A stretch of DNA of 60,028 nt from an uncultured Candidatus Marinamargulisbacteria bacterium (GTDB taxonomy: Bacteria; Margulisbacteria; Riflemargulisbacteria; GWF2-35-9): positions 1-60,028 of the forward strand of contig CAYHOI010000001.1 in assembly GCA_964358175.1 (NCBI GenBank). The letters run 5' to 3'. Positions 1-34,629 of the stretch are shown here, piece after piece; position 1 is the first letter of the stretch, and every line of letters starts with the position of its first letter. The position numbers were made by a program, and so were the translations under genes. The notes beneath the pieces are model-generated. The model searched no databases. It was not told the origin of the DNA and worked only from the letters and a program-made list of their open reading frames with translations.

Positions 1-3000
1 AATAATACGTCCTTAAACTATGGACTCCCATGGAAACCTAGCTTCTCGCAGTTGGGAGAAGGCACCAATGATATCACCTATGTGATCAGCGATAATGCCG
101 GCAATGTATCAAGCGCGTGGGTGTGTAAGATCCTGAGGGACAGCTTGCCGCCTACCTGGTCGCCACTATCGGCTCCAGCCTCCTTTAATCTCTGGTATCG
201 CGTAACGCCGGATATGGTTACCATGGATATCGATTTTGCCGATCCGAGTATCGCGCATTCGGGTATTCAGCAGCTTGCGTATCGGGTGTCGAACAATGGG
301 GGGCTGTCGCTGTCAGTCTGGAAAACGATTACCAGTGGTGTAATCCTGGACAAGTATACGAAGGATTGGCTGGTTGACTGGAGCCTTTTGGGCAATGGCA
401 CCAATGATATTCTGGTTGGGGTGCTGGATCGGGCTGGCAATGGGGCGACCTACACAGTTCGCTCAATCCTGAAAGATACCCAAAAGCCGTCATTCAATTA
501 TACGGCAGGTGTCGGGTACAACAAATGGTATCATTCCATCCCCCAAAATTTGCTTCAAATTCCCATTACACTTGAGGATGCGGGCGGTTCACTCCTTGCG
601 GGCTACTCGTGGGGATTTATAAATTCGACGACGGCCAACGAGTACAATGTGGACAACAACATTAACCAGTTGACAATGAGAACGACGATCAACTTGGATG
701 AGAACTGGATTCTCAATGGAACAAATAATATTTTTATCATCATAAGTGATAACGCGGGCAATCAAATCACGTTTAACGCATTTAATCTCTTAAATGATGA
801 TACCACTCCCGATTTTATGCCAATTCCGGTTGCCTCATATAATTATTGGACGAGAACAATCCCTTCATGGCTGAGCGTTCCGGTGACGCCACTTTTTACG
901 GATGCGGGAGGGTCACTTCTGGCGACCGTGAATATCACACTGATGACGACAGGCGCAACGACGACTTATTCTCTTGTACTGTCGACGAACCAAGTTGCCA
1001 CCTACGACACCCCATTTGTCCTGACATGGAACCTGCTTGGTAACGGTACAAATAATATTTATATAAAACTGATCGACGGTACGGGGACAGCCACAGAGAA
1101 TCGATGGTTTTTTGTACTGAAGGATGAGATACCTCCTCAGATAAAAGCACAGATAATCTCCACGGATGCAAGGTACATGAGCTGGCTCAATAGTTCCGGA
1201 AATCTCTTTAATGATTTAGCCATTAGCGTCACCGATAATGGCTATTCCCTGTTGGATGCTTTTGTGTGCGTGGTGAGCAATAATCGAAGCGATGCGTGGG
1301 TGAGTCCGCATGTTCTTGCGACACAGATCAATCGCACATCATACCCTGTTGACGGAGGGATTAACATTAACTGGGAAACCCTGAGTAACGGCACCAATGA
1401 CATCTTCTTTGTCGCGAGCGATAACGCGGGCTGGGTGGTGACGAGCTCGGTGTTTTTTCACATTCTCAAAGACGTGGTTCCTCCAATAATTTATGTGACG
1501 ATAAATACGGGTGCTACCAAAAACTTTGGCGCGTGGCACGCAACCGCGCCTCCTTGGCTGAACAGAGCTTCTGTGGATGCCTACGACACGGGTTACTCGA
1601 ATATCTTGTCTATTTCCTATCGGATTTTGAGGCAGAAGGATAATACGTACTCCCCGTGGCAGGCGGTGACCACGAATTACAAACAACCAACCTGGAACAG
1701 AGGCATTAGCGTAGACTGGCTTCTTCTTTTCAACGGAACCAATGATGTCTTTGTCGAGGTGAAAGACAGCGCGAACAATGTGAATAGCGTCACCTACTCG
1801 TTTTCGTTACTCAAAGATACCGTGAGTCCCAGCATCGTCATCGGGAGTGCCGTGAGCGGTTATACTACGCAAAACTGGTATCGCTCAGAGACTGCGCCTG
1901 CGTTTCTGCAAAGCGTGCAGGTAACGGTCTCGGACACGGGCAGTTCGAATATCAACCAGCTGGAATACGGGGTGAGCGCGAACGACGCGGGATGGAACGC
2001 GATCTCGTGGAATATTCTCGTGAGCGCGTCTCGCATTCAGACGACTGGAAACTGGGCGGTCTCTTGGGGCAGTCTGGCGAATGGGACGAATGATATTCTC
2101 GTTCGGGTCAGCGACAATGCGGGTTGGGTGGTCACCAGCGGGGTGCTGTTCAGGGTACTCAAAGATGATGTGGTTCCATCCTTTTCGTTGATAACACCCG
2201 TGGCCTCTTTCAATGCATGGTACAGGCAGGCACCCGACTGGTTCACATGGATCAGCGTAGACGCTTCGGATAGCGGTCATTCTACCATCGCCACGTTCAG
2301 CTATCAGGTCACTCGCCTGGTGGATGGTTCGGTGAGTGTCTGGCAAACCATTACCTCAAATTATCAAAAAAACATATATTCTGCCGGAGTCTCCCTTGAT
2401 TGGAATCTGCTTAGTAATGGAAGTAACGATATCACGTTTCGCGTGCAAGACCTTGCGGGAAACACGACACAAAACACGGCCTTCACGGTTCTCAAAGATG
2501 TGAACAGACCCAGCATCAACCTCGGAGAAACTTCTGTAGATGCCAAATTTTCTGCCTGGTATCGCCTGTCGCCGGCGTGGGCAGATTCAATACAGGTTAC
2601 CTTTAATGATACAGGTAGCTCCAATATCTCGGGGATTGATTACGGGGTGAGCTGGAATGGATCCCCTGCGGTCTGGCGCGTGATTACCTCAGCTTCTTCG
2701 GCAAGCCAGCACGGAGCTTGGAACCTTTTGTGGACAGATTTGCAGGACGGGACGAATGATGTTCTCGTTCGCGTGAGCGATAATGCGGGGTGGGTCGTCA
2801 CGAGCGCAGTCCTCTTTCGCGTAAAGAAGGATACAATTATTCCCGCAGTCACGCTGATTACGCCCTCAATGGCAGACGATACTGCAATGTGGCACAACCG
2901 TTCACCCGGCTGGCTCAGCTCGATAAAGGCACTTGTGACGGACGATGGCGGATCCGCCATCGCTACCGTTTCGTATCGTTTGGTTACCGGAGTCGGTGGC

Positions 3001-4180
3001 AGTGGCGGAGATCTTCTGTCTTCGAACGTCAATCAGACATCGTACGCAAAACCTTGGCAGCTCCTCTGGTCAGACCTGAGTGACGGGACGAATGATGTGT
3101 ACGTACGTGTGACGGATAACGCGTTTAACGCTGTTGATCAGTATGTGTTTCATGTGAAGAAGGACGTAACGGTTCCCAGCTATGATCTGTCTTTGGTCGC
3201 ACGCAGTTATCGAAATCCATTTGCGACAGTTCCTGAGGAAATGAGCCATATTACGATCAACTTCTATGACTGGGGCGGTGCCTTTATTCGCGATATCGAT
3301 TACGCGATTTCGATCAACACTATCCTGACCGGGCCGACAATCAACTGGTACCCGATTACCTCGAACTATAACGCGTCCACATTGGATGTGCCCTGGAAAA
3401 TTGACGGCAATCGGTTTCTTAATGGAACCAGCGATGTCTACGTGAGACTCAGCGATTATGCCGGAAATGCTGTGACGAGCGATGTTTGTTTCTCGATATT
3501 CAGGTCAGAGCCTGGGCTGACCTACAATTATGAGTTGTACGATCCGGGAGCGTACACAAGCTGGTATCGAGCCCCGCAGGAGTTTATGGCAAACACAATG
3601 ATTCGGTTCTACGATGTGTCCGGTCTCACGTTGCTAAAGACCCTTCAGTACGGTGTATCCGCGGATGGGCGTGTGACGTGGAATACGATCCGCGACAACG
3701 TAAACTACATGACCTATACTACGCCCTTTACGATCATGTGGGATACGCTCATGGAGGGTACCAATGATATTCTGATCTCATTCAACAACACCGATGGAGC
3801 TCAGATGACCTCCGGCGTACTCTTCACCTTGTTTAAGGATTCCCTCGCGCCGTTGATCGCGTTTGCCATACAGGCTCCAACAGGGTTCGCCAACGCCTCC
3901 AATCACGACTGGCTGAACCATCTCACGGTGAATGTCACCGAGAACGGGTATTCGGCTTTGAAGCGTCTGGAATGGGGGAAACGAACCCATTCGGCGTGGT
4001 ATTCCTACTCAACGATCCTCAGCGTCGCGGGGCAGAAGGTGGCATCGGCTCACTACGCAGTGCCGTGGGATCAGATGGAGGAGGCCTATAATGCCCTCAT
4101 TCTCGAGGCTGAGGACAATGCGGGCAATATCACGTCCGTGAATCTCTGCGTGGTCTCCCGCGATACAATCGCCCCCTATC
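1..4180 (+). repeat. block A: about 13 tandem ~112-aa HYR/Ig-like modules
   Basis: Each module ends with (N/D/E)G(T/S)(N/S)D(I/V)-x3-5-(V/L)xDxAGN-x12-18-(L/F)(K/R/N)Dx2-3P. An example is NGTNDILVRVSDNAGWVVTSGVLFRVLKDDVVPS at nt 2080-2181. The last boundary is SRDTIAPYP at ~4155-4181. Copies are clearly diverged at the DNA level, including synonymous sites. Confidence 0.6.
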
Positions 4181-25100: not shown

Positions 25101-28100
25101 TGTTACCAGCCTTGAAGATTTCAAGGTGAACAATGAAGGAACCGTTACGATTCAAATATTGGTCGCAGATCATGCAGGCAATATTCTCATTGAGACTGCA
25201 TCGATTATTGTGGATACACAAGTGCCAACGGGAATGGTGGTTTCAGTATTGTCTGACAATACGGATAGTGGTCAGGATGGCCTATTGCCCGAAGCCGGAT
25301 GGTACGATGATCCGCTGATTTCATTAAGTTGGACTGCCGCGACGGATAACGGAAGTGGCCTTCGAGATAAACCTTATCAAACGAAGAGTGAAGTTTCTAA
25401 TTATGACCTGCAACAGAGCACGACAACTGCAACGGTGGAAGCAAAGGTTAAATATACGTCCTACGAGGATCGGGTATCCTCTAAGTTATCAGTTCGTGCT
25501 GTTGATAGAGCCGGGAATATTTTGGAAGTGATGGCGTCAATCAACGTTGACCAGCGAGTTCCTGAACCCTATACGTTTACTGTAAAGCCTGATTCGCAAG
25601 AAAATCCGACCTATAATCCTTCTGCGGGTTGGTACAATGATCATACCCTAGAGTTGGAGTGGAGCGAGTCTCTTGATTTTGGTGGAATGCGCACATCTGG
25701 CAGTGTGTTGGCAAGAGTGGCCTCGGACATCCCATGGGTGACCTTGAATGAAAATGTGAGTCAGACCAATAATGACACTTTCTGGGTTTCTGAAGATGTT
25801 TCTGCAAGAACACTTGTTACAAGGATGGTAGACCATGCCGGAAATGTTCGGACGCAAGCAAGCAATGGTTTCAATGTAGATCTGACGCCGCCAACGTTTA
25901 GTCAGTTGGCTTTGGTTGGGGATGTCGATGTTCATGGCGTTGCGCTTGCGGCTGGATGGTATGACGATCAGATGGTTCGCTGGAAATGGTTTGGGGCGGA
26001 TAATGGGGGACTGTTTGATGCTCCGTATCGTTACCATAACTTGGTTTCCCCAAACTCACTTTGGAGTGATTGGAATGGACAGACGGGTGTTGAGATTTTG
26101 ACGACATGGGGGATTCCTCAGTTTTTTGAAGTAGAATTGCGCGATCAGGCGGGTAATCATATTACCCGAATAGAAAAGGTGAATGTCGCGGGATTTGCAC
26201 CGTCGGGAAATGTTAATTACTTTCTTAGCATAAATGTGACGGAGGTGACACCCGGATGGACAATCACTCCAAATGTAGGATGGTATGCAAGCCATACGTT
26301 GAATGTTGTGATCACCACAAATTATCTAAACCTCCTTGAACAGCAGAAGTTAACAGAGGACTTGACATACTATGTGTATAATACGAATGGTCAAACGCAG
26401 CCGATATATCAAGGAATTCCGACTTTTAGCAAGGTTATTTGTGGGGAGAGCGGCCGGGCAGGACTTACCGTTGTTTATGGTATTTTACTCAAGAGCGGCT
26501 TGAGGATTGAGGGGCGACAAATTATCTTTGTTGACACCCAGCCTCCGCAGGATTTTTCTGCAACTCTCCGAACGTGTACAGACCATGGAGGAGATGGTGT
26601 TTCACCGGAATCGGGATGGGTGGATACGATGAATTTCCACATTGATCTTCTTGCTCCGAAGGATGGGGGAATTCTAAGAGCTCAACCCTACCGGTATCGA
26701 TTTGCAGTCCCAACCGGTTCATGGAGTGATTACCAATCGTCAGAAAAAATTGAAAATCTTCAGATTTCCGAGAATCGAGCGTATATCGTTGAGGTCTCGG
26801 CAGTGGATTGTGCGGGAAATATTGCAACAGTTTCTGTTTGTGTAACTGTGGATACAATGCCTCCAACATTTAACGGCTTGGAGATTATCCTCATTCCGGC
26901 AACAAGTAATCAGGGAATTGAGCCTGTTCCGGGCTGGTATCGGAACGATAGTCTAAGTGGAAGTGTGACATGGAATCGAGTGACCGCAGATGACCTGAGA
27001 CAAAACTTTTTATATGTGAGAACAAATAGCGCGAAAACAGTAGGCAATTTTTCTGCTCTGACATTTGATGCCAAAGTGGTTCCGGCTGATATACTTCCAA
27101 TAAATATAGATGTATTTATTGCGGATCATGCGGGAAATGTTGCTCGATCAGCTAAGGTTATTTATTCAAAAGTGACCGTGCCAGGGAATAGTTACGTGAT
27201 TCTTAAACGAGACGGAAATCATAATCCGTGGTTTAAACCTGAAGAGGGATATTATGGCCGACTGAGCGTGGATGTTGAGTGGGCTGAGCCAATAGGTGGG
27301 GGGCTGAGAGGACGACCCTATCAGATCCAGAGCAGCTTATCCTCTAGTCGCAACTGGACGGCTTCTCAAGACGGGAAAGCCTACAATGGATATGCTGTGA
27401 GTGAAGGTGTTCAGGAGATTATTGTTCGTGCGGTGGATAAAGCTGCAAATATTGCAACGTTTTCAACCCTTGTTTCGGTGGATGTGACCGCGCCAGAGCC
27501 GATTGTTCTCTCTTTGGTGCAAGATCTTGACAACGATTCTGATGGAGCTGTTCCATTACAAGGTTTTGATGATGACGGGGTGATTACCGTTACATTTAAT
27601 CCTGTCTTTGATAATGTGGCATTGAGAGATAAGCCCTATTGTTCTTTATTGGGGGATTTAGAGGATATCCCGTCGGGGACAGTTCTGAGCCTTAGTCGTG
27701 AGGGTTATGCGACTCTGACAACTTCGGTAGAAGGAATACAAACTGTCTCGGTGGTAGCAGTGGATCGAGCAGGAAATTACCGAATTTCCATAGTAACCGT
27801 GAATGTGGAAAGAACGGTTTCAGAGTTTACGGTGAGCATTAATCGCACAGAGTTCCCCGTGTCGGCAAGCCTGATTGTTTCGGTGTCGATGACGAAGAGC
27901 ATTTCAAGAGTGCCGGGAGTGGTACTTTCGGTTGCTGGTGTGGATTACGGTCTTGCAGTGGTTCGTTCAGAGATTTCGCAGAATGTATTTATCGGAACCT
28001 TGGATGTGGGTGTGGTGGTGAGCGATGGTATTGGAATTCTTCGTTTCAGCGTCATCAATGATGCAGGGAAAATTGCCACCCAATCCATAGGCATGGTTTT

Positions 28101-31100
28101 ACCGATTTATATCCATCGGTTTGTCCCCGAGGAACCTGTAGTGTCATTCTTTAGTCCTTCGAATGGAAGCCGACAATATACCAATTCATTAAACGTTTTG
28201 GTGTCTTCAGATATGTCCCTGTCGCATCAGGATTATCTGTGGCTGATTACGGAGAATAGTACGCCTCCGACCCTTATGGATCCGAAGTGGACGACTCTAA
28301 ATGGGGAGTATCGCCTCGCAGAGGGTTCAGATGGCACCAGAAACTTATGGGTCTGGGTAAAGAATAGTTATGGGATGACTCTGCGGGCTGTTACTGCAAA
28401 TATTATGTTGGATCGTTCTTTGCCTACTGGGAACGTCAAAGTGGGACGAAGCGAGATTTGGTTTGGCAAGCAAACGTTCCTTCTGGAAACGAGTAAATTA
28501 CTGCCCGTGCCCCCTCAAGTCCTTCTCACCTTTGCTAGGGACGGAGTGACTAAATCTATGAATGTGAGTGGGGCGAACGGGAAATATCGAGCTGATTTCA
28601 CCTTTAAGGAAGATTTTGGTGAAGGGTATGTGACGATTCAGATTCAGATGGAAGACTATGCGGGGAATGTGTCTACCGTGAATATTGGCGCAACCAGGGT
28701 GCTCTTGAAGGTGATGTATCCCCACAGCCCGATTTTGAAAATAATGGATTTGGCGACTCATCAGTTGGATTATACGAACAACTTATCCAAAATCTATTGG
28801 AATTTGCTGGTGACCAAAAATAACTCAGAAGAAACATGGACTGACCAAAAATGGTACATCATCGACGATGTGACGGCCAATCGGCCTGAAGGCTACGATC
28901 CGAGATGGCTGGAATATTCTCCACAGCAAGGGGTTACCCTGCCTTCCGCATCCTATTTCAGGATGTATGGTGAGCAGGGCATCGAAACGAGTTCGTATAA
29001 TCCCCCAAAAGGCTATTTGAACAAGATGTTTTATGCATGGTTTAAAAATAGCGGAGGGTATGTAAGCCTACTGCCTTCAGTCGCAAGGATCACCGTTGAT
29101 GTGACTGCGCCCTCGGCGACCCTGAACTACCTCCCTTTACAGGGGACGACCGATGCACAGCTCAAGTTAACTCTTAACACTAGCGAGGGGGTAACGGTTT
29201 ACGGTTCAAAAATGATTCATTCAGATGGGGTGAATTCTTTTGAATTCATTGGATCTGGCAACCTATGGCTGACAACTAATTTGGGGGTGCGACCCTCAAA
29301 ACATCCTTTATTCTCAACTGTTATTCAGGATTATGCGGGGAATCAGACTACATTAGATGTTGATCTTCAACCCTATTTACAGATTTCAAGTATTAATTGT
29401 GTTACCCAGAGTGTTTCTCGGCTGGATAAAGATATCACTCTTCTTAGAATAGAAGTTTCTGCGTCAACTAAAGTGATTCTTTACGGACTTGTTATTCAAA
29501 AAACAGGAGATGATGGACACCGGACGCTGAGGACAATGCGATTGGTGAGTGGAAATACAGTGCTCAGCACTGCAACGTTCCCCAAAGACCAAATGACTGC
29601 GGAATTTGTCATGAAGGGTGGCGGTATGGTGATCACTCGACCCACTGTGCTAACCGTACGAGCTGATATTGAGGCGTCGGCAATGGAGCCGTTTGCTCTC
29701 AACGTTGATCGAAGTGGCTGGAAGGTGGATACCTATAACATTGCCTTAGAAGAGAACTTGCCATTTACTTCTGCCCCTTTCCAGATTATGGATGGAAGTA
29801 ATGAGCTGAGAATCTATCTTGAAGATAATTCTTGGCGTACTCAAACGGTGAAAGTCCATCAAAACGACAGAGATATTCTTCTTGGACAGTTCAATATGGA
29901 AAGTTACCCCTATAGTACGATGCTTAAGATGATTACCTTAAATATATCTGGAAATCTTACGACTCCTGGTTTGAGCGGGGTTCGGTTGATTCGAGATAGC
30001 AATTACAATGGGGTTTATGATCAACTCGAGGATGATCAGGTTGGCAATAGTCAAGCACAAGCACCAAAGCCAAGCACTTTATTGCTTAAGGGTCTTGATG
30101 AGAAAGTATCGCAAGTAGCGCAGAGGTATTTTATTGTGGGGGATATAGCATTAAGCGCGACCGTAAATAATTCTTTTCAGTTTAAAATTGCATCGAAAGC
30201 GGATGTTCAGCTGGGAGACAATCAATTTGTGAACGAGCGTGCACTGCCAATGTTGACCCAGACGAACACTGTGCTTCCTTATGTTCCAAAGGTCAGCCTT
30301 TCCGTTCGGAATGCTGTGAGCGAAGATGTTTTCCAGAGTCAAACCATTCAGCCCTATAGTTACTTGAGGTTTGCGACCGATTATCGTACGAGTAGTTTGA
30401 AAGAATTGGTCTTTAGAGTGTCCTGTAACATGTCTTATGACAATGTCGATATAATCAAGCTATTTATTGTAACTTCAGACAGTGCTGTGATTAATGTCTC
30501 GGATGAGCAATCTGCCAACACTCTAAAAGATCAAGATAAAATTAAAATGACCATGACGAATGAATTTCTCGTGACATCGAGTGGACGTTATTTGGCCGTT
30601 GGAATGAAGTTGAAGCCGGGTACTTCAACCGGACAGTTGCAATTGGTACTGCTTGCCGAAGGTATATCCTTCAATGAATCGGGCAAAAATGAGAATACAA
30701 GCAATCTTGACTTGGGACTTCTCAATATTGTGGATCTGCACCAGCCGATTTTTGATGGGGTGGATGTTCCACGGTATATCAATATAGCGGATCATGTGTC
30801 CTACAATTTTGATGTTGGCGTAAGTGCAGATCATACTGTGGTTGCTACCCTTGAAGTAGCGATTGGAAGTGATAGTGGACAGGAGAATGTAATGGCATGG
30901 ACTGCCTATGCTTTCAACCCACCAGCAGCCTATTTTGTGGACAAGGCCGGGGTGATGAATGGGCTTGCCTTGCAGCACAATCAATCGTATTTCATGAAAA
31001 TCCGTGCGAAGAGTTTTGATTCAGCAGGAGACTATGTGTCGACGCAGAAAATTCTGCCCTTCAAGGTGGATATGACGCCCCCGGTTGTGGCTCAAGGCGC

Positions 31101-31725
31101 AACGGTCTATGTCAATCAGACCGTTGGAGGTGCGCAATCGGCGTCTGCTCAGGGAGTTCGCAATACGCAGTATTTGACCTGGCCGGCGGCCAAGGATGAT
31201 GAGTCAGGGCTGAAGCGGTATGAAATTCAGTGGCAGAAGGGCACAAGCCTCAAGTGGGAGGTTCTGGAGTCGAATACGACGCAAAATTATTATAAACAGT
31301 CTAGCCTGGATCCTGCTCTGCGTTACAGGTACCGTGTAAGGGCTGAGAATAATGCAGGGAGCTACACGGATTGGCTTGTGTCATCGTATACGCAAGTGCA
31401 GAAGCCCAAAGAAGTCATCTACAATGTTTCGTTCTTTCCCAATCCTGTAAAGTCGCAGGAGCAGGATGGAACCCTCTATTATGAGCTGAATCAAGATGCG
31501 AATGTGACTATTAAGATTTACGATGCGCTTGGGCATTTTGTGCGCGAGATTAATTGTGTGTCTGGAAAAATGGGAGGCATGAGTTCCGAACCAAATCGAG
31601 TAATTTGGGGAGGCACCAATTATAAGGGCGAGAAAGTAGCAAAGGGGGGATACATTGTCGTCCTCTCTGCGGATAAAGAAGGGCCACAGAATATCGTCAA
31701 GATTACGGCAGGAATTCTGCGCTAA
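1..31725 (+). CDS. giant repetitive, predicted all-beta extracellular/surface protein, 5'-partial (at least 10,574 aa inside the window)
   Basis: Frame +1 has no stop from nt 1 (aat aat acg tcc tta aac tat gga ...) to TAA 31723-31725. Codons 1-17 (NNTSLNYGLPWKPSFSQ) already fit the repeat consensus that precedes each NGTND motif, so the TTG at 52 in the ORF track is an artefact of the window edge. The sequence holds dozens of modules ending D-x-AGN ... V-x-V-D-x-x-P-P and is very poor in Cys. No catalytic motif such as HExxH was seen. The C-terminus is a sorting-type beta-sandwich. Confidence 0.85.
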   Translation, partial: NNTSLNYGLPWKPSFSQLGEGTNDITYVISDNAGNVSSAWVCKILRDSLPPTWSPLSAPASFNLWYRVTPDMVTMDIDFADPSIAHSGIQQLAYRVSNNGGLSLSVWKTITSGVILDKYTKDWLVDWSLLGNGTNDILVGVLDRAGNGATYTVRSILKDTQKPSFNYTAGVGYNKWYHSIPQNLLQIPITLEDAGGSLLAGYSWGFINSTTANEYNVDNNINQLTMRTTINLDENWILNGTNNIFIIISDNAGNQITFNAFNLLNDDTTPDFMPIPVASYNYWTRTIPSWLSVPVTPLFTDAGGSLLATVNITLMTTGATTTYSLVLSTNQVATYDTPFVLTWNLLGNGTNNIYIKLIDGTGTATENRWFFVLKDEIPPQIKAQIISTDARYMSWLNSSGNLFNDLAISVTDNGYSLLDAFVCVVSNNRSDAWVSPHVLATQINRTSYPVDGGININWETLSNGTNDIFFVASDNAGWVVTSSVFFHILKDVVPPIIYVTINTGATKNFGAWHATAPPWLNRASVDAYDTGYSNILSISYRILRQKDNTYSPWQAVTTNYKQPTWNRGISVDWLLLFNGTNDVFVEVKDSANNVNSVTYSFSLLKDTVSPSIVIGSAVSGYTTQNWYRSETAPAFLQSVQVTVSDTGSSNINQLEYGVSANDAGWNAISWNILVSASRIQTTGNWAVSWGSLANGTNDILVRVSDNAGWVVTSGVLFRVLKDDVVPSFSLITPVASFNAWYRQAPDWFTWISVDASDSGHSTIATFSYQVTRLVDGSVSVWQTITSNYQKNIYSAGVSLDWNLLSNGSNDITFRVQDLAGNTTQNTAFTVLKDVNRPSINLGETSVDAKFSAWYRLSPAWADSIQVTFNDTGSSNISGIDYGVSWNGSPAVWRVITSASSASQHGAWNLLWTDLQDGTNDVLVRVSDNAGWVVTSAVLFRVKKDTIIPAVTLITPSMADDTAMWHNRSPGWLSSIKALVTDDGGSAIATVSYRLVTGVGGSGGDLLSSNVNQTSYAKPWQLLWSDLSDGTNDVYVRVTDNAFNAVDQYVFHVKKDVTVPSYDLSLVARSYRNPFATVPEEMSHITINFYDWGGAFIRDIDYAISINTILTGPTINWYPITSNYNASTLDVPWKIDGNRFLNGTSDVYVRLSDYAGNAVTSDVCFSIFRSEPGLTYNYELYDPGAYTSWYRAPQEFMANTMIRFYDVSGLTLLKTLQYGVSADGRVTWNTIRDNVNYMTYTTPFTIMWDTLMEGTNDILISFNNTDGAQMTSGVLFTLFKDSLAPLIAFAIQAPTGFANASNHDWLNHLTVNVTENGYSALKRLEWGKRTHSAWYSYSTILSVAGQKVASAHYAVPWDQMEEAYNALILEAEDNAGNITSVNLCVVSRDTIAPYPVMYDVENSVLYRDFITSQNQTEAISWVDRGDIGIAGVEKWLYYWGQDPNGTSATQHESASLPPFTVPAGTAGNGIYRLRVSPVDRAGNQGEWQPVYKYTYDSQVPARWYYTDHDGRYWYRSLTDLSASIGWFGRDDWGFAGVKRYHVLLTTNANVNPVGDPSSKVTTDMLVAWPTPSLQSEVRHKASFYWTIAIEDYAGNIGVNVAGTTYDRYSLSSFGLDLQPPLLDAINAGSPYDLRSAYTGLALPRGEWTSVDQFSIDVTPSAQDDASGVSYYQFNVGVSTPDSAQNYSYSYQMGRKFTSMQLQPMEQGNISKVYVRAIDWVNAISTWSVALATINYDGLPPNKAGHFLIGDGEAYSTGNSLIISWDEAFDEGGSGVTTYDVVAYAMSPAGVIVATESFSLPSVSRQIKIGALGDSPKIPLLNDEYIYFARLLVWDRVGWNSAKKYGSNRMDYAQQTNVIQIDRKSPFSVKNPREDARTNDLVTWKWGQPADNQGGSTPGSGVGQYQIRMYWKDPVTGLKADYFSTFNVADTTYEYPIAPGMEFGAEIRAIDNVGNLADNWMAIREGVLDSTPPNNPPVAISRDRSLYSIWAGDGTGNDIKVPAYTTGNVNQFQFIWMPGEDDVVGVKGYYVAWGKNLVTPNTYTGYTFTTSRTISLSIAETVTATYRLWLAATDYYNNTANWMEAYRYTYNGLATKNTIRPLAPVLSTRYISANNQGVTVTLTTKNASGVTLGSFDHYEVRLYRAFSEAFVTQNQFGSSANVKSDIFLLNSVALSPNTQYFIKYRAYYGISNFTEWSYASPYLFYDDVRPPTVNSVLLEEGEDIVTRTSGIAVRFYAARDSNDDNASYAGSGIDHYETVLFDSPSPGEQYSSGAVIPLLSPAYTNTGVKLTLTEPLADGHQYCLKVRAVDRAGNAGPWSETSNELMVDIRAPDVPVGITNSYVPTDPSGYTNVFSYIWSWTPATDAGGGGGGYTSGVRQYQYYYGYSMQRDTGAENTLVQTNATAVQEWAGYNAQGLRNNQSTGWRAKSTSQGGSGDVKYFYVRAQDWAGNWSDWSASPATTKVDVFAPAHPIPNPSMNTVVGTTSMTFSWSPVSDIGGGGLKYYHATLYDKNKLQVASSRNIPATRTSVTFTGLATDNAYVLKMDAEDVFGEKIPAYPYFSQGMVPRWDADLLSAWVMVDATPPAPPNYIRRSVWAFNTNTADDPPGQIMYSAILDSVGSAEFGNNFRADYGSNYCYYGANKEMSDYLSSYEDKINANLIYYRNGSVSDAELGAISYSLGRGDYTGAQLRQLLVDMAYLKGEAHTDQSGANPRYAISDYYVNNYRPTLNIPNQGGYYYNGVFQNSEINTVQTYVNGRLSGSEVMNALKLSDFGSILSDGSSFRVTNFTPGMNYDDFRRSLISSQPKLNGVVLVGDLVGISVNRTPTDGVAVFDRLKSKGYLDVAGVINPLYDFTQGDQVSGVKKTTWNITNADISNRLKTIQSDYHSSALASSVLKKLYTDMGAQYDELRMELNTMLTSNRRVANPNNLTTTLADIVSRSHGYVWFWGRAADDGLGGSGVSTWEVQVKEDGQNEASRSLSLPYDQPWLNCAGSYTSFPGFNGSPALSVSASMRLRAMDNAGNAGEWSDWRGVTANGLRVWYQAPPGNRSVYDTGSLLGIKNGRSDTQSLWAQNRELNLLWDGSQMWGPDLFYDYSSSMGQSDLPQGRTKYRFHDVNDSTISGGTNRMYVMAYNAENEGTNELVYSLDYDALPPDRPSISTPLATQNVPNSYTFSWSGGADPNPGSGLKSYHVQIVDADGNVAYERTDFTGDSYLFTEGKSGKKYTLRVNAVDNAGLSGEIAMTNAWVVVDKDAPPAPDMLWVNTGKVSNGSMWSSSANYNVWRWVLPQDTGRSGLASYNIAINESNKGWLEVTSGMIDKTTYLSNAPIFAKIKFSDKAGNISGEKNSSYPLKIDTEAPLIDLSVADIRELNGMVNDVWQTSTRSVIFSWEQANKNAASDALSGVVALEYYWGPEADKTSGFAINTFDKKVTPVGQMPAGAETIYFFKMRSQDNAGNWSPMATLYTTKYDNFVKSIEDVRQSVTTNRYSNQLTQNYNWGNVSDLTGIQSFVFSFYVSGNLLDSMDDGVLTRDVTIPYDSAIYDSSSSRFMASVMLDNQFSSQDVYVRMRVRDTNGNVSIAGNKSEKMWLDFTAPNAVDVPTIDNGSIIHVTSRNFGVTWNWTAPKDIGGSGLSSYDTKLQVYSDAQAVSINPNVPSTVNRAVYPQVFTDNVYAFSISAHDRAGNTGNISFGQLFVVDTVAPSVNLQLRNACSAYGWNRPFKENIYYLIRGNTVGLSIYMKDKASEQIGNVGSGIASMKLELYELATPDTGEFALASVPTFSLSANSICTFGIPMTSSVIHTSQNTQLWRYALISDDIVISDSYLSSQQFVDPTSNATANFIQMTLSRNWTGFFRLSLSVKDFANNETSQNYYLYYDPVPPSIDMGFSGMIFLSTNAMVYIRRLDGGQSVIQEDASNGSKYADERSRMTFFPIAGYQLYEVSGANQQKLGLNITGSRYYPYCELEQGAWGSGFMVLSTNAKFYVRVFDELSEEIGFFQGGGNQPNRSWDAAGDILISSESGRINVNGYQLPFAKYGLIDDFYQNEATNRLTHNPERNVTFLDYARECLEVSLNADVVDGTRLVLGVADMAGNVTTVSSLPVYRSSPIILVTADASLQYPVPHSYNRRYGTQYSWGDYTYGTQRVSASFYVDTVNVYVSANMTVSSEVHSLRDGLQQPFFFAQNGVEINPYSGLSATGYSVSGKSTMNYVYWGQFSVVTLSTGAQTPLLSGQGKYISINVPNRYGDSDVSIRVSYSVDEDYPSLTVNTFFVYPAIPIVNPTVDNRLGAMSMTTNRVAITSDGVDEISGIFPSSFFVTQLSESLHSLKEVLFIRATNSLSTPNWISANNEGSNGVWLTDNAGVGLSDTPFLHRLRQNGLITTDWQAGFEGLSGTVTLGVNVMDVIWRDKAGNYSGTTNLAIVYDRTPPELLAVSLNADWVDAATTVSMVFEKPYQSIQGGTPMLPNDPINSLHAFYMDGYQGLRLYFRISDNAKVNGWLSADAADVNTVRVQWTTNNTYWHSYTVNGGSFNVYQPSGDFGVFKITQSHEIEARRPALNNGEAFNYCFFVSASMIISDNALFGSGIPEIVTQNQAYAFRIDLLDYAGNASRATGSYTVNIDNDRSNRSVELTISGDSTVNTANAKIVTQNSHGAGLLNSELYTPQDCDPFAAPNEKIYNDGQIFAKLGITVNTLVGREYALVWTTMNPVVQPLNKPSYVYYAYGKIGWATSNSNFVGTGNFAFDFFNPTPDIGRTGLSSGLPYYATNNALLTLPTTDTVIHLFVAPMGVAGNPINIDSGTWATITIDLSAPILSGNSAPFYLHDLAGTTLNALKGLYVSRSVIEGDCPVAPSFDPMAHLDFLGLGSYFFQDVHRSTHVQFGRGDYVDLQSGMPTNNTFLRKKVYRADVAGSNGYLFEQLSSERYSSIANMIDTDLAAFGEGLYRFDLYTSNKAGLVTKSSFAVVMDGTPPTINQFAFEVSVSQDYEPVSVNYYGSQNIRISWSASDNMGVSSNGQLTGGDSSGIWFYELRFENLTTPSVKGYVFSSRNTTITWDQGLGLAFVPTKAISTTLNWRDVVGIIKLGKVRFTLNAYDYALLTISRSHEVYIDSGNEVQSMVSLADPQEDNVDNQQDGESPSESSQGASGYFDQTSINLVIQFLPTAFDTTQLNRASPQRTHLPIEVFLVTPGSVAAVPISTSLIVVTYSNSANLDVQGAPTANLANYRLTLSVVDTKEFVKTGGYEGPVTLSYKIVDGAGYRSAMTSIFTRVTIDMSAPTGSYGFHEGLKFIGSDNTYFLYGVSENFAFATTTSGTKVSANYEDAHSGLSSKPYRFMVSLNSLAGAYQGVDKDMGWQARTSSPFDLLSSEISTSNKWYAVKLRVRNQTGVVAYNTLNVILDTQTPNIYFFAVLQETASNEYARSAENFVGKRATTINWGASDNVFSESFGSIFGVTGNSHQGIRQYQLSFATPNVRSISADIFPAITTNIVTVGYTEFVIGEGVVRYVIRAFDFANNETVVTKGPYYYDWTNTLHNQVGQILAVTDNTDEDGDGISPVSANGVSGYFDQPTISIQLILSTTADDATQLNYLSDAHIPVEVFAVTNAVMTRIAASQIWATYDHKLLIDAHPNLAAYSIAITINLADIVSRDRYQGGVTLFFKLIDGVGNLSLTTNTPLRLTVDLSAPTGQMRVLSGVTFQGSTSNFAQYGVSTNMLFTSVNAVAMDHQYSDAHSGLAISWNKVTVIRYPLEGGVGTAVNRDWSDVSQVSINSVQAMISNNLFLVESDILNGVGEVAHSATWNVVFDTVPPTINAEDFMLTFNVLSGGYAPSSVNYLQSTTLDLVWVATDNVFASSPNLFAVLSHRGVYQYRLSFSKDGQTFTSVSANMMPAVNNHLYISPNELLGTIGEGRVYFKLEAVDFAGNWSSRNIGPYFMDLQNTLNEQIVRIEPVTANNDSMPDYFQKSPFDASGKNGYFDRVSVDFIIHLSPNASDLTQLSYLEGSYIPLEVYVVTDGVKKARVWDSDIHATYNRDVLPSLNATSNLASVPIAVTINFSNYVGTSNYNGRIQFYYKIIDGAGNVSATTNTDMAFLDVTVDMTAPVGNSRFGEGFTFVGSGNTFGLNGVSDDVAFARQLSNLVISMDYQDAESGLAISSNYFSVWEYSLTHNYVTSGNRGWTNVPTLNLSDMGTITQNRWYKVVGFAANNTGVITKATTRNVIIDLVDPVVVTFSLSGELQSGSDYGSSSLNFAQVQTLNFVWTASDNMFSDLTIGEFKQKNHQGISLYAFLYKVNGIDWVTLNGSITPTAQNEFQVDKTTVNSLFSGKKAFFKLVAYDFAMNQSSKEYGPVFFDSGTVLEQAISACILEDKTDADDLGGSPFDVSGQGYFDQSVLKMRLQLMDTANDVTQLSTLPSGNIPLEVMATFYGSNRGSLYFSKVFPGNLQKLSATYNYGRLPTIDAANNLGGITIDILTLNLFDQIEGSGWNGGVGLSFKLIDGAGNLSTDWSREFRVTVDVTPPTVALLWGTRDYFVTGNDETFDQFGFGKSSQYPVKFPYVGFSRQIQSLRLSGNAQDQDSGLPTGAYRYDVTQFAFSNLSSTVNSDSTGWTATPTLNLSERFTGMIAPNFAYRVDLHARNQVGRTSISTNLIILDDVAPTFQAMNRSEPVGGDYSATSKDLYSLQDVLLTWRASDNFYAENAGGEGNFFNARDHQGVYFYQVWYEKNGVTASITENMLAYADNDFVVSKGYIRQSIGEGIVTFSIRATDFAGNTSVTTSRLRFDWSNTINLQIADMISAMDATNSDEDLWDRRQSDKWGDFVDDVSPFDASDGQLGIFDQTVIPVHIRIAENGYDISQISELTPNHIPFEVYISHDGQVLTINHDRIWVTYDRKTDIESPSNIASRNYWLTVDVGEWVGVEPLHRGAFQLLVKVIDGAGNLSSFDTKEFRLTVDRTPPTSDASAPFYFNEPIGWVTYNPLFLDGYNGVAFINTTHFSAQMVSFNDAESGLSEQPYWMKLAGVGFKDENENQADKGSVQITWQTQEAFTGVSLSELGYQGLTGGGVFDLFFKVRNNAGIVTYNLNYLCIDLLKPVLVTFQRTEHIDVDQDGYLPEEDTYYNKQAIWLTWDAYDNLGYRGDQPAEVVTGDPDAIWFYTLSWTCRSLTGNMVSSGDILTPGMRLDAKQWFLPTSGVSVIDDVSYGISISDNLKEGNVEFILGAVDYALNVTTKSMQVVFDWTNRATASSNFYFVADQTDSSTPADGVIPEAGYFDQTTMTVVITLDHVIELTQLSTRNLKVNYSTGNSGSELSVMNPEDYRYSIEGVDGKFTVTIDFNLAPYLMTLNVVEGQPVRSGVVSLNITLLDRAGNMPSVPANMGCRVTVDMQSPSLESSGVFDVYLYPDKDSMGDGIDPENGYLDDSLPYITVTLNSRVTSNGAAQMDQCLNVRLFDDSRIQKASANTFELISENRSLMIVVTMDKGGWSVPLQADQQIATLPSENSYTYEFYLRDKAGNILSRVVTLNYDRTPPVLRDRAFVYKVEPAKGEDHGGDGIDPLAGYYDSPFATVNIQLNIPNWTVGYGNSLASSYNDGVSESYHGSGIRKRPLFVRLESLTPLNIPGVYASATYPGGHFGAELTANLFAVGIPLTRDAARIIVMMADRAGNVVTLNDTNRVTMDDRMPFGISFNLVDTRDVSGIGIFPVYGFFNHQVITFNIEGSQVDRGLSGLRGNRFVVSTANGIWKNYTYQSRYVDPELKEQNEPGTDSPLIGSLRLPTGTVTVWAGLVDRAGNVGVISQPIVVDMTPPSINLFSLDFATNNKGLRGDIDSHGDGVDPYYGYWDEPSVNIEVVSLSYAEDYRRSNDVFVKDYRYTHVPVMHDFGLGWVTTENNIGQSSRVFREIYVPEGNSQPIVVYVADLAGNVVSRQILVTVDQTVPAGFAQIVLDVDTDSQGDGVDPLYGFFDNVEVGLVISENTADSSGFRVNRYLIRSNSARTLSYNVHDYKNKDKSESLHRPIDLEQGDQVAFGQDSSQIFNFKPASEDEKQIEIVAGISDCAGNVREVTASITVDTQPPTGDFQGKLITDTDSALDGIDPLEGYYDSLAVSVLLSSNVVDNIGMRTNRYFIKTGDAGFLTSYNAYPYDGNHYFSEGADVPGIGKFGSATGSITGITYNAQGVYEVHVAVADGAGNLLEKTVRVTIDLTQPSSVPIVRLAPYRAGGNRVEADEGWYGSNEVDFYAEFRNGATDELSGLRDVPYVARVVTPGTNQISWLLEQRDPAFKQIWVPEDRSITKNSSLFVGLVDRAGNVASASVPVHVDLTPPTGNLSLIIRPDSKNDASQLIPESGYYNDNTMDLQWQMVSDYLGLKSRPFRVKANEMPWSDSLNVTSLEDFKVNNEGTVTIQILVADHAGNILIETASIIVDTQVPTGMVVSVLSDNTDSGQDGLLPEAGWYDDPLISLSWTAATDNGSGLRDKPYQTKSEVSNYDLQQSTTTATVEAKVKYTSYEDRVSSKLSVRAVDRAGNILEVMASINVDQRVPEPYTFTVKPDSQENPTYNPSAGWYNDHTLELEWSESLDFGGMRTSGSVLARVASDIPWVTLNENVSQTNNDTFWVSEDVSARTLVTRMVDHAGNVRTQASNGFNVDLTPPTFSQLALVGDVDVHGVALAAGWYDDQMVRWKWFGADNGGLFDAPYRYHNLVSPNSLWSDWNGQTGVEILTTWGIPQFFEVELRDQAGNHITRIEKVNVAGFAPSGNVNYFLSINVTEVTPGWTITPNVGWYASHTLNVVITTNYLNLLEQQKLTEDLTYYVYNTNGQTQPIYQGIPTFSKVICGESGRAGLTVVYGILLKSGLRIEGRQIIFVDTQPPQDFSATLRTCTDHGGDGVSPESGWVDTMNFHIDLLAPKDGGILRAQPYRYRFAVPTGSWSDYQSSEKIENLQISENRAYIVEVSAVDCAGNIATVSVCVTVDTMPPTFNGLEIILIPATSNQGIEPVPGWYRNDSLSGSVTWNRVTADDLRQNFLYVRTNSAKTVGNFSALTFDAKVVPADILPINIDVFIADHAGNVARSAKVIYSKVTVPGNSYVILKRDGNHNPWFKPEEGYYGRLSVDVEWAEPIGGGLRGRPYQIQSSLSSSRNWTASQDGKAYNGYAVSEGVQEIIVRAVDKAANIATFSTLVSVDVTAPEPIVLSLVQDLDNDSDGAVPLQGFDDDGVITVTFNPVFDNVALRDKPYCSLLGDLEDIPSGTVLSLSREGYATLTTSVEGIQTVSVVAVDRAGNYRISIVTVNVERTVSEFTVSINRTEFPVSASLIVSVSMTKSISRVPGVVLSVAGVDYGLAVVRSEISQNVFIGTLDVGVVVSDGIGILRFSVINDAGKIATQSIGMVLPIYIHRFVPEEPVVSFFSPSNGSRQYTNSLNVLVSSDMSLSHQDYLWLITENSTPPTLMDPKWTTLNGEYRLAEGSDGTRNLWVWVKNSYGMTLRAVTANIMLDRSLPTGNVKVGRSEIWFGKQTFLLETSKLLPVPPQVLLTFARDGVTKSMNVSGANGKYRADFTFKEDFGEGYVTIQIQMEDYAGNVSTVNIGATRVLLKVMYPHSPILKIMDLATHQLDYTNNLSKIYWNLLVTKNNSEETWTDQKWYIIDDVTANRPEGYDPRWLEYSPQQGVTLPSASYFRMYGEQGIETSSYNPPKGYLNKMFYAWFKNSGGYVSLLPSVARITVDVTAPSATLNYLPLQGTTDAQLKLTLNTSEGVTVYGSKMIHSDGVNSFEFIGSGNLWLTTNLGVRPSKHPLFSTVIQDYAGNQTTLDVDLQPYLQISSINCVTQSVSRLDKDITLLRIEVSASTKVILYGLVIQKTGDDGHRTLRTMRLVSGNTVLSTATFPKDQMTAEFVMKGGGMVITRPTVLTVRADIEASAMEPFALNVDRSGWKVDTYNIALEENLPFTSAPFQIMDGSNELRIYLEDNSWRTQTVKVHQNDRDILLGQFNMESYPYSTMLKMITLNISGNLTTPGLSGVRLIRDSNYNGVYDQLEDDQVGNSQAQAPKPSTLLLKGLDEKVSQVAQRYFIVGDIALSATVNNSFQFKIASKADVQLGDNQFVNERALPMLTQTNTVLPYVPKVSLSVRNAVSEDVFQSQTIQPYSYLRFATDYRTSSLKELVFRVSCNMSYDNVDIIKLFIVTSDSAVINVSDEQSANTLKDQDKIKMTMTNEFLVTSSGRYLAVGMKLKPGTSTGQLQLVLLAEGISFNESGKNENTSNLDLGLLNIVDLHQPIFDGVDVPRYINIADHVSYNFDVGVSADHTVVATLEVAIGSDSGQENVMAWTAYAFNPPAAYFVDKAGVMNGLALQHNQSYFMKIRAKSFDSAGDYVSTQKILPFKVDMTPPVVAQGATVYVNQTVGGAQSASAQGVRNTQYLTWPAAKDDESGLKRYEIQWQKGTSLKWEVLESNTTQNYYKQSSLDPALRYRYRVRAENNAGSYTDWLVSSYTQVQKPKEVIYNVSFFPNPVKSQEQDGTLYYELNQDANVTIKIYDALGHFVREINCVSGKMGGMSSEPNRVIWGGTNYKGEKVAKGGYIVVLSADKEGPQNIVKITAGILR
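4181..11100 (+). repeat. block B: about 16 FN3-like modules carrying a W..x..D..SG(V/L/I)xxY signature
   Basis: Recurrent signatures include DDASGVSYYQFNV, EGGSGVTTYDVVAY, PGSGVGQYQIRMYW, AGSGIDHYETVLFD, YTSGVRQYQYYYGY, GGGGLKYYHATLYD, PGSGLKSYHVQIVD, GRSGLASYNIAINE and GGSGLSSYDTKLQV. Each is followed by (R/A)A(I/V/Q)D.AGN..(E/D)W and a P-rich boundary. Confidence 0.55.
7800..8820 (+). other. unique ~330-aa non-repeat insert inside block B
   Basis: It lies between WAFNTNTADDPPGQIMYSAIL and HGYVWFWGRAADDGLGGSGVSTWEVQV. The sequence is Y/N/S/G-rich and includes the only clearly helix-like stretch seen in the protein (ADISNRLKTIQSDYHSSALASSVLKKLYTDMGAQYDELRMELNTMLTSNRR). I found no copy elsewhere in the ORF. 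Confidence 0.45.
11101..14879 (+). other. block C: ~1,260-aa weakly periodic central region
   Basis: D.AGN / D..PP boundaries still occur (KDFANNETSQNYYLYYDPVPPS, VADMAGNVTT, RDKAGNYSGTTNLAIVYDRTPPE, LLDYAGNASRATGSYTVNIDND), but spacing is irregular and the intervening sequence is not repeated. The one exception is a small internal echo (FLSTNAMVYIRRLDG / VLSTNAKFYVRVFDE). Confidence 0.4.
14880..22110 (+). repeat. block D: five complete and one partial ~1.22-1.31-kb super-repeats (~410-435 aa each, 4-5 subdomains)
   Basis: Unit boundaries (V-I-x-D-x-x-x-P) lie at ~14880, 16180, 17400, 18640, 19930 and 21235. Each unit contains W.ASDN.F...HQG(I/V).(Y/L)Y, then (S/N/Q)GYFDQ...TQL(N/S)...IP(I/L/F)EV, then (K/L)(I/L)IDGAGN(L/V)S...TVD(M/L/V)(S/T)(A/P)PT, then DA(H/E)SGL(S/A). 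The GYFDQ motif sits at nt ~15413, 16660, 17884, 19118, 20458 and 21758. Confidence 0.65.
22111..27830 (+). repeat. block E: about 16 tandem ~120-aa modules with an N-terminal acidic loop and a (G/A)(Y/W/F)(Y/F/W)D motif
   Basis: Loop examples are DKDSMGDGIDPENGYLD, GEDHGGDGIDPLAGYYD, DIDSHGDGVDPYYGYWD, DTDSQGDGVDPLYGFFD, DTDSALDGIDPLEGYYD, DNTDSGQDGLLPEAGWYD, CTDHGGDGVSPESGWVD and DLDNDSDGAVPLQGFDD. Each module closes with VDRAGN / ADHAGN ... V(T/I/H)VD(L/T/Q)(T/Q)PP. Confidence 0.6.
27831..29390 (+). repeat. block F: alternating A-B-A-B-A arrangement of two module types
   Basis: Type-B modules are PVVSFFSPSNGSRQYTNSLNVLV...YLWLITENSTPPTLMDPKW...GTRNLWVWVKNSYG and PILKIMDLATHQLDYTNNLSKIYW...KWYIIDDVTANRPEGYDPRWLEY...KMFYAWFKNSGG. 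Type-A modules end in NDAGKIAT, EDYAGNVST and QDYAGNQTT. Confidence 0.5.
29391..30740 (+). repeat. block G: three ~145-aa modules of a further, unnamed beta-sandwich type
   Basis: All three share one pattern. A condition-like strand is followed by a set-label strand: DKDITLLRIEVSASTKVILYGLVIQKTGD, DRDILLGQFNMESYPYSTMLKMITLNISGNLTTPGLSGVRLIRDSNYNGVYD and QPYSYLRFATDYRTSSLKELVFRVSCNMSYDNVDIIKLFIVTSD. Confidence 0.4.
30741..31416 (+). other. two FN3-like domains preceding the C-terminal domain
   Basis: The second domain is canonical FN3: YLTWPAAKDDESGLKRYEIQWQKGTSLKWEVLESNTTQNYYKQSSLDPALRYRYRVRAENNAGSYTDW. Confidence 0.6.
31417..31722 (+). other. C-terminal FlgD-Ig-like / T9SS type-A-like sorting domain (~100 aa)
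   Basis: The sequence is IYNVSFFPNPVKSQEQDGTLYYELNQDANVTIKIYDALGHFVREINCVSGKMGGMSSEPNRVIWGGTNYKGEKVAKGGYIVVLSADKEGPQNIVKITAGILR. It follows the known pattern (F/Y)PNP...L...V.I.IYD..G..V......G.....W.G.N..G..V..G.Y at the extreme C-terminus. Confidence 0.6.
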
Positions 31726-31934: not shown

Positions 31935-32621
31935 TTGCGCATGGATATATTGATGCCTGTCTTTTTGTGTTGGGTCGTTCTGATGATCGGGATCGCGTTT
32001 TCCTATGGCGATGTTCAGGCAGTTTTTGAGGGAGATCCAGCGGCAAAAAATATTTTTGAAGTGTTGACGTACCCCGGGGTGTATGCCATATCCATGCACC
32101 GTGTGAATCATCTTATTTATAGACTTGGGGTTCCGTTTCTTCCACGCTTACTGTCACAAGTGATGAGGTTTTTGACCTTTATCGAGATTCATCCTGGAGC
32201 CCAAATAGGCAAGGCATTTTTCATTGATCATGGGGATGGTGTTGTGATTGGAGAAACGGCAGTGGTTGGAGATCATGTCATCCTCTATCATCAAGTGACG
32301 CTTGGAGGAACTGGTAAGCAAAAAGGGAAGCGACACCCAACGATTGGCAGTCATGTTATTATCGGGGCGGGTTCTAAAATATTGGGAAATTTGAAAGTGG
32401 GAGAGTATTGTAAAATTGGAGCTGGTACCATCGTCATTCATGACGTGCCAGAGCACTCAACGGTTGTGGGTAACCCAGCACGTGTCGTATCTGGACAGAA
32501 GGGCGATCCATTCCTTAATTTGGGGGATGTTCCGGATCCTATTCAGGAGAACTTTATTCGACTTGAGAAGGAAATTAGCGAGTTAAAGCGGGAAATAGCG
32601 AGGGATCGTCGTGATAAGTGA
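31935..32621 (+). CDS. cysE: serine O-acetyltransferase
   Basis: Motifs: DPAAKNIFEVLTYPGVYAISMHRVNH, IEIHPGAQIGKAFFIDHGDGVVIGETAVVGD, VTLGGTGKQKGKRHPTIG, and hexapeptide repeats. The protein is collinear with Bacillus-type CysE, including the C-terminal coiled tail. The start is ambiguous: TTG 31935, ATG 31941, 31953 or 31983. Confidence 0.85.
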   Translation: MRMDILMPVFLCWVVLMIGIAFSYGDVQAVFEGDPAAKNIFEVLTYPGVYAISMHRVNHLIYRLGVPFLPRLLSQVMRFLTFIEIHPGAQIGKAFFIDHGDGVVIGETAVVGDHVILYHQVTLGGTGKQKGKRHPTIGSHVIIGAGSKILGNLKVGEYCKIGAGTIVIHDVPEHSTVVGNPARVVSGQKGDPFLNLGDVPDPIQENFIRLEKEISELKREIARDRRDK

Positions 32622-34618: not shown

Positions 34619-34629
34619 GGAGCGGTCGC

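Follow-up and report, generated by a model that had tools for sequence, protein, structure and literature searches.

A giant, zoned Ig/FN3-repeat gene of Margulisbacteria whose layout is conserved across an order while its sequence has diverged

Zoned giant proteins made of immunoglobulin (Ig)-like and fibronectin type III (FN3) domains are well known (SprB, GhpA, SiiE, MpIBP, LapA and titin), and an arrangement of repeats in consecutive blocks is therefore ordinary for this class. SprB of Flavobacterium johnsoniae (6,497 aa) and GhpA of Aureispira (5,898 aa) are Ig-repeat surface filaments with a C-terminal sorting domain of the type IX secretion system (T9SS), and the stem of GhpA consists of 52 Ig-like domains (bioRxiv 10.1101/2024.01.29.577165). 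SiiE of Salmonella (53 BIg domains) and RTX adhesins of the MpIBP/LapA type are Ca2+-stiffened giants exported by the type I secretion system (T1SS). The super-repeats of the titin A-band, a eukaryotic intracellular analogue, arose by recursive duplication, and domains at equivalent positions are more alike than neighbours (PMC10665226); the fixed domain number of titin works as a ruler (PMC5648799, PMC7427331). Very large genes have a high incidence in Margulisbacteria, one of several such phyla named by West-Roberts et al. (bioRxiv 10.1101/2023.11.21.568195), and adhesion to other cells was proposed there as a frequent role of such proteins; the giants of that survey include the Archaeovorins of Omnitrophota (HEAT, TPR and enzymatic domains) and dockerin-type proteins, and an Ig/FN3-zoned protein is not described among them. 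The searchable literature on Margulisbacteria, Termititenax and Riflemargulisbacteria yielded no description of the giant gene reported here, which lies at the start of a 60,028-nt stretch of contig CAYHOI010000001.1 (assembly GCA_964358175.1; the whole stretch is referred to as the window) from a groundwater-type Candidatus Margulisbacteria. The source assembly is labelled G000 (1.94 Mb, 154 contigs, 44.5% GC), the contig with the window C1 (bases 1-60028), and related genomes G002-G009.

The explanation favoured here, with a probability of roughly 0.85, is that the gene encodes a Sec-exported, zoned protein of ~16,459 aa, whose zones would have arisen by in-situ duplication and since been frozen, and whose product would be a surface fibre anchored at its C-terminus and perhaps stiffened by Ca2+. 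The protein combines a Sec-type signal, a chain of ~130 beta-sandwich domains and a conserved C-terminal beta-sandwich, and this layout is frozen across the order. A Sec signal peptide, a very long run of slightly varying Ig-like modules and a C-terminal beta-sandwich of sorting or anchor type are shared with SprB and GhpA. Unlike these, the giant protein is 2.5-3 times longer, belongs to Margulisbacteria and not to Bacteroidota, is divided into several distinct zones that include three-domain super-repeats, and occurs in a genome without SprA, PorU and GldM, its C-terminal domain (CTD) staying under the TIGR04183 cut-off. With SiiE and MpIBP it shares a tandem beta-sandwich rod (a resemblance of fold only), acidic loops at the module start and a regional layout; in contrast to them it carries no RTX nonapeptide block or T1SS signal, and its anchor is probably at the opposite, C-terminal end. 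Extender repeats of the MpIBP type are near-identical, whereas copies in the giant protein are ~33% identical with saturated synonymous sites. Titin is likewise zoned into Ig and FN3 domains with multi-domain super-repeats, and the giant protein shares its evolutionary mode, that of an anciently amplified array, in that its own copies cluster by position across species; titin is an analogue, not a relative, without homology beyond the fold class. Four features of the giant protein are unusual: its length of ~16.5k aa, a set of ~130 domain positions that are conserved almost exactly at ~31-38% identity, super-repeats made of three domains, and the presence of a T9SS-like CTD where the genomes have no T9SS.

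The organization of the window protein (10,574 aa) was determined with a self-dot-plot in which 120-aa windows were each compared with the whole protein, and with hidden Markov models (HMMs) that were built solely from window modules inside one zone and then run against the whole protein. Unrestricted iterated HMMs were dropped, because their matches spilled from one zone into another via the D-x-A-G-N/linker motif that the zones have in common. The dot-plot consists of square diagonal blocks with nearly empty space between them, which establishes the block borders that a sequence-only reading of the window, made earlier, had proposed. The claim of that reading that repeat families stand in consecutive, non-interleaved blocks was borne out by the dot-plot, the block-restricted HMMs and profile comparisons (Table 1).

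Table 1. Zones of the giant gene and other features, with window coordinates unless a contig is named.
Feature	Position	Strand	Remark
Giant-gene frame	1..31725	+	10,574 codons plus stop, open 5'; 3' two-thirds of ~49.4-kb gene
Zone B1, last 13 of 64 Ig-like (Big_13-type) modules, ~111 aa	1..4221	+	First module cut by contig end
Zone B2a, FN3-like modules, first part of set of 14-17	4222..7725	+	GC-richest part of the gene, 0.56
Unique non-repeat insert, 359 aa (aa 2576-2934)	7726..8802	+	Splits the FN3 zone
Zone B2b, FN3-like modules, second part	8803..11091	+	
Core, 1,138 aa (aa 3698-4835)	11092..14505	+	
Zone B4, 0.6 + 5 super-repeats, 409-445 aa	14506..21720	+	
Zone B5, 16 acidic-loop modules and one degenerate slot	21721..27831	+	
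Tail A-B-A-B-A, two alternating module types	27832..29400	+	
About three larger modules of another type (C1-C3)	29401..30750	+	
One ~110-aa module, then one verified FN3 domain	30751..31425	+	
FlgD-Ig/T9SS-CTD-like C-terminal beta-sandwich	31426..31725	+	
Perfect tandem repeat, 102 nt x 2.3, another gene	59794..60028	+	In-frame, acidic protein, comparison object
5' third of the giant gene	Contig C4, source assembly	minus	5,885 codons, open 3', runs off contig end
Paralogue, 2,537 aa	G000 C15:14652-22262	+	8 B5-like acidic-loop modules and same CTD

The B1 HMM recovered 13 modules (aa 1-1418, 45-128 bits each) and matched nowhere else in the window protein. The sequence-only reading had reported 13 HYR/Ig-like modules; 13 Ig-like modules are indeed present in the window, but they belong to an array of 64, and the HYR label found no support, since Pfam HYR (PF02494) remained below threshold on B1 (20.3 versus 21.7 bits, summed over 2,500 aa) and gave no match on a two-module B1 piece. 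Big_13 (PF19077) scored 60.1, 53.8 and 28.6 bits against a cut-off of 27, with the C-terminal third of the profile alone matched per module, and is, from these profile matches, the better Pfam label for B1. In zone B2, 12 confident FN3-like modules were found within aa 1408-3697, two more were supported at 88% hhalign probability (aa 1498-1645 and 1986-2100; orthologue alignments) and three segments are doubtful, a total of 14-17 that is interrupted by the unique insert and agrees with the ~16 FN3-like modules proposed; Pfam fn3 (PF00041) passed its gathering threshold in this zone with 50.7 bits. The insert has no Pfam match and no second copy, and measures 204-207 aa in G004 and G002 and 359-409 aa in other orthologues. 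It aligned with G004 over 8% and is the most variable stretch of an otherwise collinear protein. The core, described earlier as weakly periodic and ~1,260 aa long, is present at 1,138 aa, but without internal repeat in the dot-plot and without Pfam match; its periodicity is limited to module-closing D-x-A-G-N strands, which alone recur, at irregular spacing.

Zone B4 opens with a partial copy (aa 4836-5126, HMM positions 170-410), followed by full copies that start at aa 5127, 5544, 5952, 6364 and 6809 and end at aa 7248, each scoring 522-593 bits with the B4 HMM, in keeping with the 5.5 super-repeats of ~420 aa counted earlier. Domain 1 of the super-repeat carries a G-Y-F-D-Q loop related to B5. 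The B5 HMM recovered 16 modules (aa 7236-9277, 68-108 bits), the number of acidic-loop modules originally given; a degenerate slot (aa 8738-8852) retains a G-W-Y motif and is scored as a module in G002. Fifteen B5 modules contain the motif P-x-x-G-[YW]-[YF]-D, 8 of them with an Asp-rich loop just ahead of it, and the motif is essentially confined to B5. For the tail, a BLAST self-comparison found one A-B pair and nothing for aa 9800-10250. Profile-profile comparison (hhalign, orthologue alignments) recovered the A-B-A-B-A pattern, with a probability of 90% between the first two A modules, 96% between the two B modules, 46-58% for the weaker third A module, and no A-B cross-match above 20%. Of the three modules of another type that had been proposed to follow, C2 and C3 match at 92% over 55 columns, but C1 and C2 match only weakly (25%), and Pfam gave no match for aa 9801-10250. 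One of the two FN3 domains placed before the CTD was verified (aa 10361-10475, Pfam fn3, 31.8 versus 25 bits) and the other had no match (aa 10251-10360). The terminal CTD was recognized by FlgD_ig (PF13860; 30.4 bits versus 27), in a match that spans aa 1385-1460 of the C-terminal 1,474 residues.

Orthologues were searched for in 40 related genomes using one super-repeat as the query. The giant gene was found in nine of the 11 genomes of the same order (in G006 only as a single weak match on a 4,141-aa frame) and in none of the 29 other genomes of the class or phylum. Carriers among the relatives include Candidatus Margulisbacteria GWF2_35_9, a Riflemargulisbacteria metagenome-assembled genome (MAG), a Termititenax MAG and several MAGs labelled Marinamargulisbacteria. 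Omnitrophota, the source that publications on giant genes would have suggested, was thus rejected in favour of Margulisbacteria. Three orthologous frames are uninterrupted (16,989, 16,976 and 16,438 aa) and three further copies end at a contig end or in masked sequence. All six of these relatives have the same zone order, with 64-65 B1 modules where complete and 0.6+5 super-repeats throughout; 16-17 B5 modules were counted in the five that reach this zone, the G003 frame stopping in masked sequence just past the super-repeats. Sequence identity between genomes is 75-83% for RecA and 31-38% for the giant protein.

A tree inferred by maximum likelihood for 35 super-repeat units (seven genomes) groups the units by their position (S1-S5) and not by genome. 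S3, S4 and S5 each form one clade with 97-100% SH-aLRT support, and the five position labels require four changes, the minimum, which was attained in none of 200 shuffles. Best matches of B5 modules were at the same index in 16 of 16 cases against both G004 and G002 and in 11-14 of 16 in more distant genomes; for B1 this held for 38 of 64 modules against G004 and 21 of 64 against G008, where chance gives ~1. The best non-self B1 match within the source genome has 26-51% identity, versus 30-51% for orthologues. Position-wise clustering and same-index matches indicate that the arrays predate the split of the families and have not been homogenized since. At least two families of the order inherited the zones, with nearly the present copy numbers, from their common ancestor; the modules have since evolved as position-specific orthologues, and neither gene conversion nor turnover of copy number is apparent. 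Together, shared zone order and counts, positional clustering and saturated synonymous sites strongly support the earlier proposal of an old block-wise amplification followed by divergence.

At the DNA level, Tandem Repeats Finder detected no tandem array within the window part of the gene, and a blastn self-comparison of this part gave two short matches, its longest exact repeat being 17 nt. When all 49,377 nt of the gene are considered, exact repeats reach at most 23 nt, compared with 14-16 nt in codon-shuffled controls. Copies within a zone share 33-36% protein identity and ~44% DNA identity, and their resemblance in DNA has fallen to what chance would give. Because synonymous sites are saturated at ~33% amino acid and ~44% nucleotide identity, a same-codon test was used in place of dN/dS between neighbouring modules; the same codon was found at 0.37-0.41 of identical residues versus 0.33-0.37 expected from codon usage, as under saturation. 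No higher-order periodicity was found in the 64-module B1 array (identity versus lag 1-12; no distance dependence). The contrast that had been drawn between these diverged copies and the perfect repeat near the end of the window (given as 59796-60028) was, if anything, understated, and that repeat is real; it runs off the contig end, and more copies may therefore be collapsed or missing. Protection of the gene from recombinational collapse, also put forward in the sequence-only reading, fits the absence of repeats longer than 23 nt and the frozen counts; it describes an effect and not necessarily a cause.

The frame in the window lacks a 5' end because contig C1 starts at base 1. A frame on contig C4 begins with a signal-peptide-like sequence (basic residues, then VFVLLALFFLGFSFASS) and holds 51 B1 modules, so that the 13 modules of the window are the last 13 of 64; G004 and G009 have 64, and G008 has 65. 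For the N-terminal tip, Ig_Rha78A_N reached 25.4 bits, below its cut-off. The C4+C1 concatenate (16,459 aa) gave a single BLASTP high-scoring segment pair (aa 11-16459, 31% identity) with the 16,989-aa frame of G008 and aligned across the joint to G004 (residue 5885 to 5912, 5886 to 5913). Genes upstream of the C4 frame are those found upstream of full-length orthologues, and cysE and cheD lie downstream in the relatives. On this sequence evidence, the two frames are one gene of ~49.4 kb (49,377 nt), with a predicted product of ~16,459 aa and ~130 Ig/FN3-like domains. The break between the contigs falls inside B1 module 52, where C4 ends in ...GAAGGGGGGAA and C1 starts with AATAATACG; C4 terminates in a G-run.

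Structures of two protein parts were predicted with AlphaFold2 (AF2). Super-repeat S2 (25 aligned units) was modelled with a mean predicted local distance difference test (pLDDT) score of 88 and a predicted TM score (pTM) of 0.79 as three beta-sandwich domains (approximately residues 1-130, 134-252 and 256-385), not four or five, and Foldseek matched this model to FN3 triples (contactins, fibronectin), the BIg domains of SiiE, and MpIBP (5irb). B5 modules 5-7 (42 aligned triples) were modelled as three sandwiches at pLDDT 76, with low confidence in long loops. The top Foldseek match of this triple was SiiE (2yn3_C, E 6.4e-11; also 2yn5), along with extender repeats of 6xi3, many cadherin ectodomains, MpIBP (4p99) and GhpA of Aureispira (9fls, TMq 0.41, root-mean-square deviation 6.3). 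These are all tandem rods, most of them Ca2+-stiffened. The acidic loop of B5, as read from the sequence, directly follows a V-D-x-x-x-P linker at the module start. Pfam scans gave no TSP_3 match and Cadherin_5 at 13-23 bits, below its cut-off of 26.5; scans of all protein parts found neither HemolysinCabind or another RTX family nor a T1SS C-terminal signal.

Under the reading favoured here, each zone would have arisen by tandem duplication in situ, of a single module in B1 and B5, of a three-domain unit in B4 and, in the tail, of a pair of modules. As DNA identity was lost, recombination and slippage would have been left without a substrate, and selection on total length or on position-specific surfaces would then have frozen the array. 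Ig and FN3 domains measure ~4 nm each, and the product would be a long, semi-rigid extracellular fibre of ~0.5 μm at this spacing. By analogy with SprB and GhpA, the C-terminus may be cell-proximal, with the 64-module array and its N-terminal Ig-like tip pointing outward, and the acidic loops of B5 and B4 may serve as Ca2+ stiffeners near the cell-proximal end, as in cadherins and SiiE. Specific binding would most plausibly reside in the length-variable insert and the non-repeat core. Segments with different functions (stalk, spacer and tip), as proposed in the sequence-only reading, may exist along such a fibre.

Several observations weigh against this reading or parts of it. Per-zone identity to G004 is fairly even (33-47%), the CTD alone standing out as the best conserved part of the protein (51-59%), and so offers no direct sign of different zone functions. 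No contig end was found to overlap the start of C1 by 15 nt or more; bringing the C4 and C1 frames into register takes either a 2-nt overlap or 3n+1 missing bases, and the joint is unsequenced. A canonical T9SS was not found in G000 and four relatives (97-99% complete): SprA had no match over the cut-off in the five genomes and none whatever in G000, GldM had none, PorU was matched only in its CTD part, and PorV reached 21-37 bits against a cut-off of 250. As SprA, PorU and GldM were not found, the protein cannot be filed as T9SS cargo despite the look of its CTD, which itself scored below the TIGR04183 (Por_Secre_tail) cut-off (20.3 versus 23 bits) and matched the PorZ and PorU CTDs only in part. 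Finally, we infer in-situ duplication from similarity within zones, and an ancient fusion of separate repeat genes is a less likely alternative.

Such a fusion, in which the zones were once separate repeat genes or came from paralogues and were joined before the order diversified, seems unlikely to us. It would account for the sharp delimitation of the zones, and the paralogue on contig C15, the only other place in G000 with a module family of the giant gene, demonstrates that at least a B5+CTD cassette exists outside it. However, no orthologue with a split gene was found, and B1, the FN3 sub-family and B4 are confined to the giant gene in G000. Reciprocal weak HMM matches between B4 and B5 (12-19 bits), with domain 1 of the super-repeat B5-like and the first B5 modules B4-like, make the border of these zones gradational, as would be expected had they diverged in situ. 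A fusion could also have been followed by amplification. A second alternative, a single Ig/FN3-like family forming a divergence continuum whose blocks are an artefact of detection thresholds, has little probability. Unrestricted HMMs leak across zones, the profile of one FN3 module aligns with those of B1 and B5 (89% and 84% hhalign probability), and the D-x-A-G-N closing motif is present in every zone. Mean Smith-Waterman scores are nevertheless 107 within B1, 64 within B5 and 48 within the FN3 zone, 1.7-3.5 times those between zones (30-34); the latter are near the level of shuffled sequences (27-30), and the modules therefore do not behave as one family. Restricted HMMs give 45-128 (B1) and 68-108 (B5) bits in their zones versus at most 23 bits outside, where the FN3 HMM matched weakly (one B5 module at 23 bits, the C-terminal FN3 at 19 bits), and module lengths and signature motifs differ by zone. 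Each zone is its own sequence sub-family, and all are distantly related beta-sandwiches sharing a D-x-A-G-N closing strand.

A typical dynamic adhesin array, whose repeats would be young, differ in number and be homogenized by gene conversion, as they are in many RTX and Gram-positive adhesins, is already refuted by positional orthology, saturated synonymous sites, conserved copy numbers and the lack of any DNA repeat longer than 23 nt; no evidence in its favour was found, the single perfect repeat of the window lying in another gene. Equally improbable is that the long frame is an assembly chimera or non-coding. The source MAG is fragmented (154 contigs), and a contig end interrupts the gene, but uninterrupted, collinear frames of 16,438-16,989 aa stand in assemblies of other studies on contigs of 125-178 kb without N, and AF2 folds two parts of the protein confidently. 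An artefact is thus refuted for the frame itself, the C4-C1 joint excepted.

Five open reading frames (ORFs) of the source genome, the giant gene and four others, end in the same CTD. Weak PorV-like beta-barrels (21-37 bits) were seen in G000 (C72, 8819-9214, minus strand), G008 (C28), G007 (C14) and G009 (C4), 1-4 kb from ORFs ending in this CTD. Such barrels could be a non-canonical partner of the CTD proteins in genomes without SprA, PorU and GldM. A more specific and tentative version of the favoured reading, which we hold to be possible but doubtful, is that the fibre is an extracellular, length-calibrated ruler or tether of ~0.5 μm whose counts (64-65, ~16, 5.6 x 3 and 17) selection has kept constant from a time before the order's families diverged, and that the FlgD-Ig/CTD mediates export and anchoring without a canonical T9SS, perhaps with help from the PorV-like barrels. 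The ruler function is only hypothetical and is drawn from the analogy with titin.

Flagellar and chemotaxis genes adjoin the giant gene in the source genome. The order downstream is kept between the window (31935-39853) and orthologous loci, with cysE (absent in G004), a J-domain protein (G004, G002) and cheD, and recA lies a few kb farther along in all six relatives. GC content of the FN3 zone (window 4001-10000) is 0.54-0.57 versus 0.445 for the genome, and drops steadily toward the 3' end of the gene, to 0.43-0.46. A 3.2-kb contig labelled 'Syntrophales bacterium' (JBAZOY010000159.1) carries two super-repeat units of the giant-gene family at 37% identity, one of them with a stop in the matched frame; this contig is probably mis-binned.

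The gene offers a clean bacterial case in which the architecture of a giant repeat protein stays fixed as its sequence drifts, and selection appears to see length or position-specific surfaces, not sequence. It also illustrates how a repeat gene of 49 kb can remain stable, since none of its remaining DNA repeats has the length needed for recombination. Three other MAGs (G002, G003 and G007) likewise break the giant gene within its B1 array, and genes of this kind are therefore systematically under-reported. For Margulisbacteria, a T9SS-like CTD on the largest protein of T9SS-less genomes poses a concrete question of secretion and anchoring.

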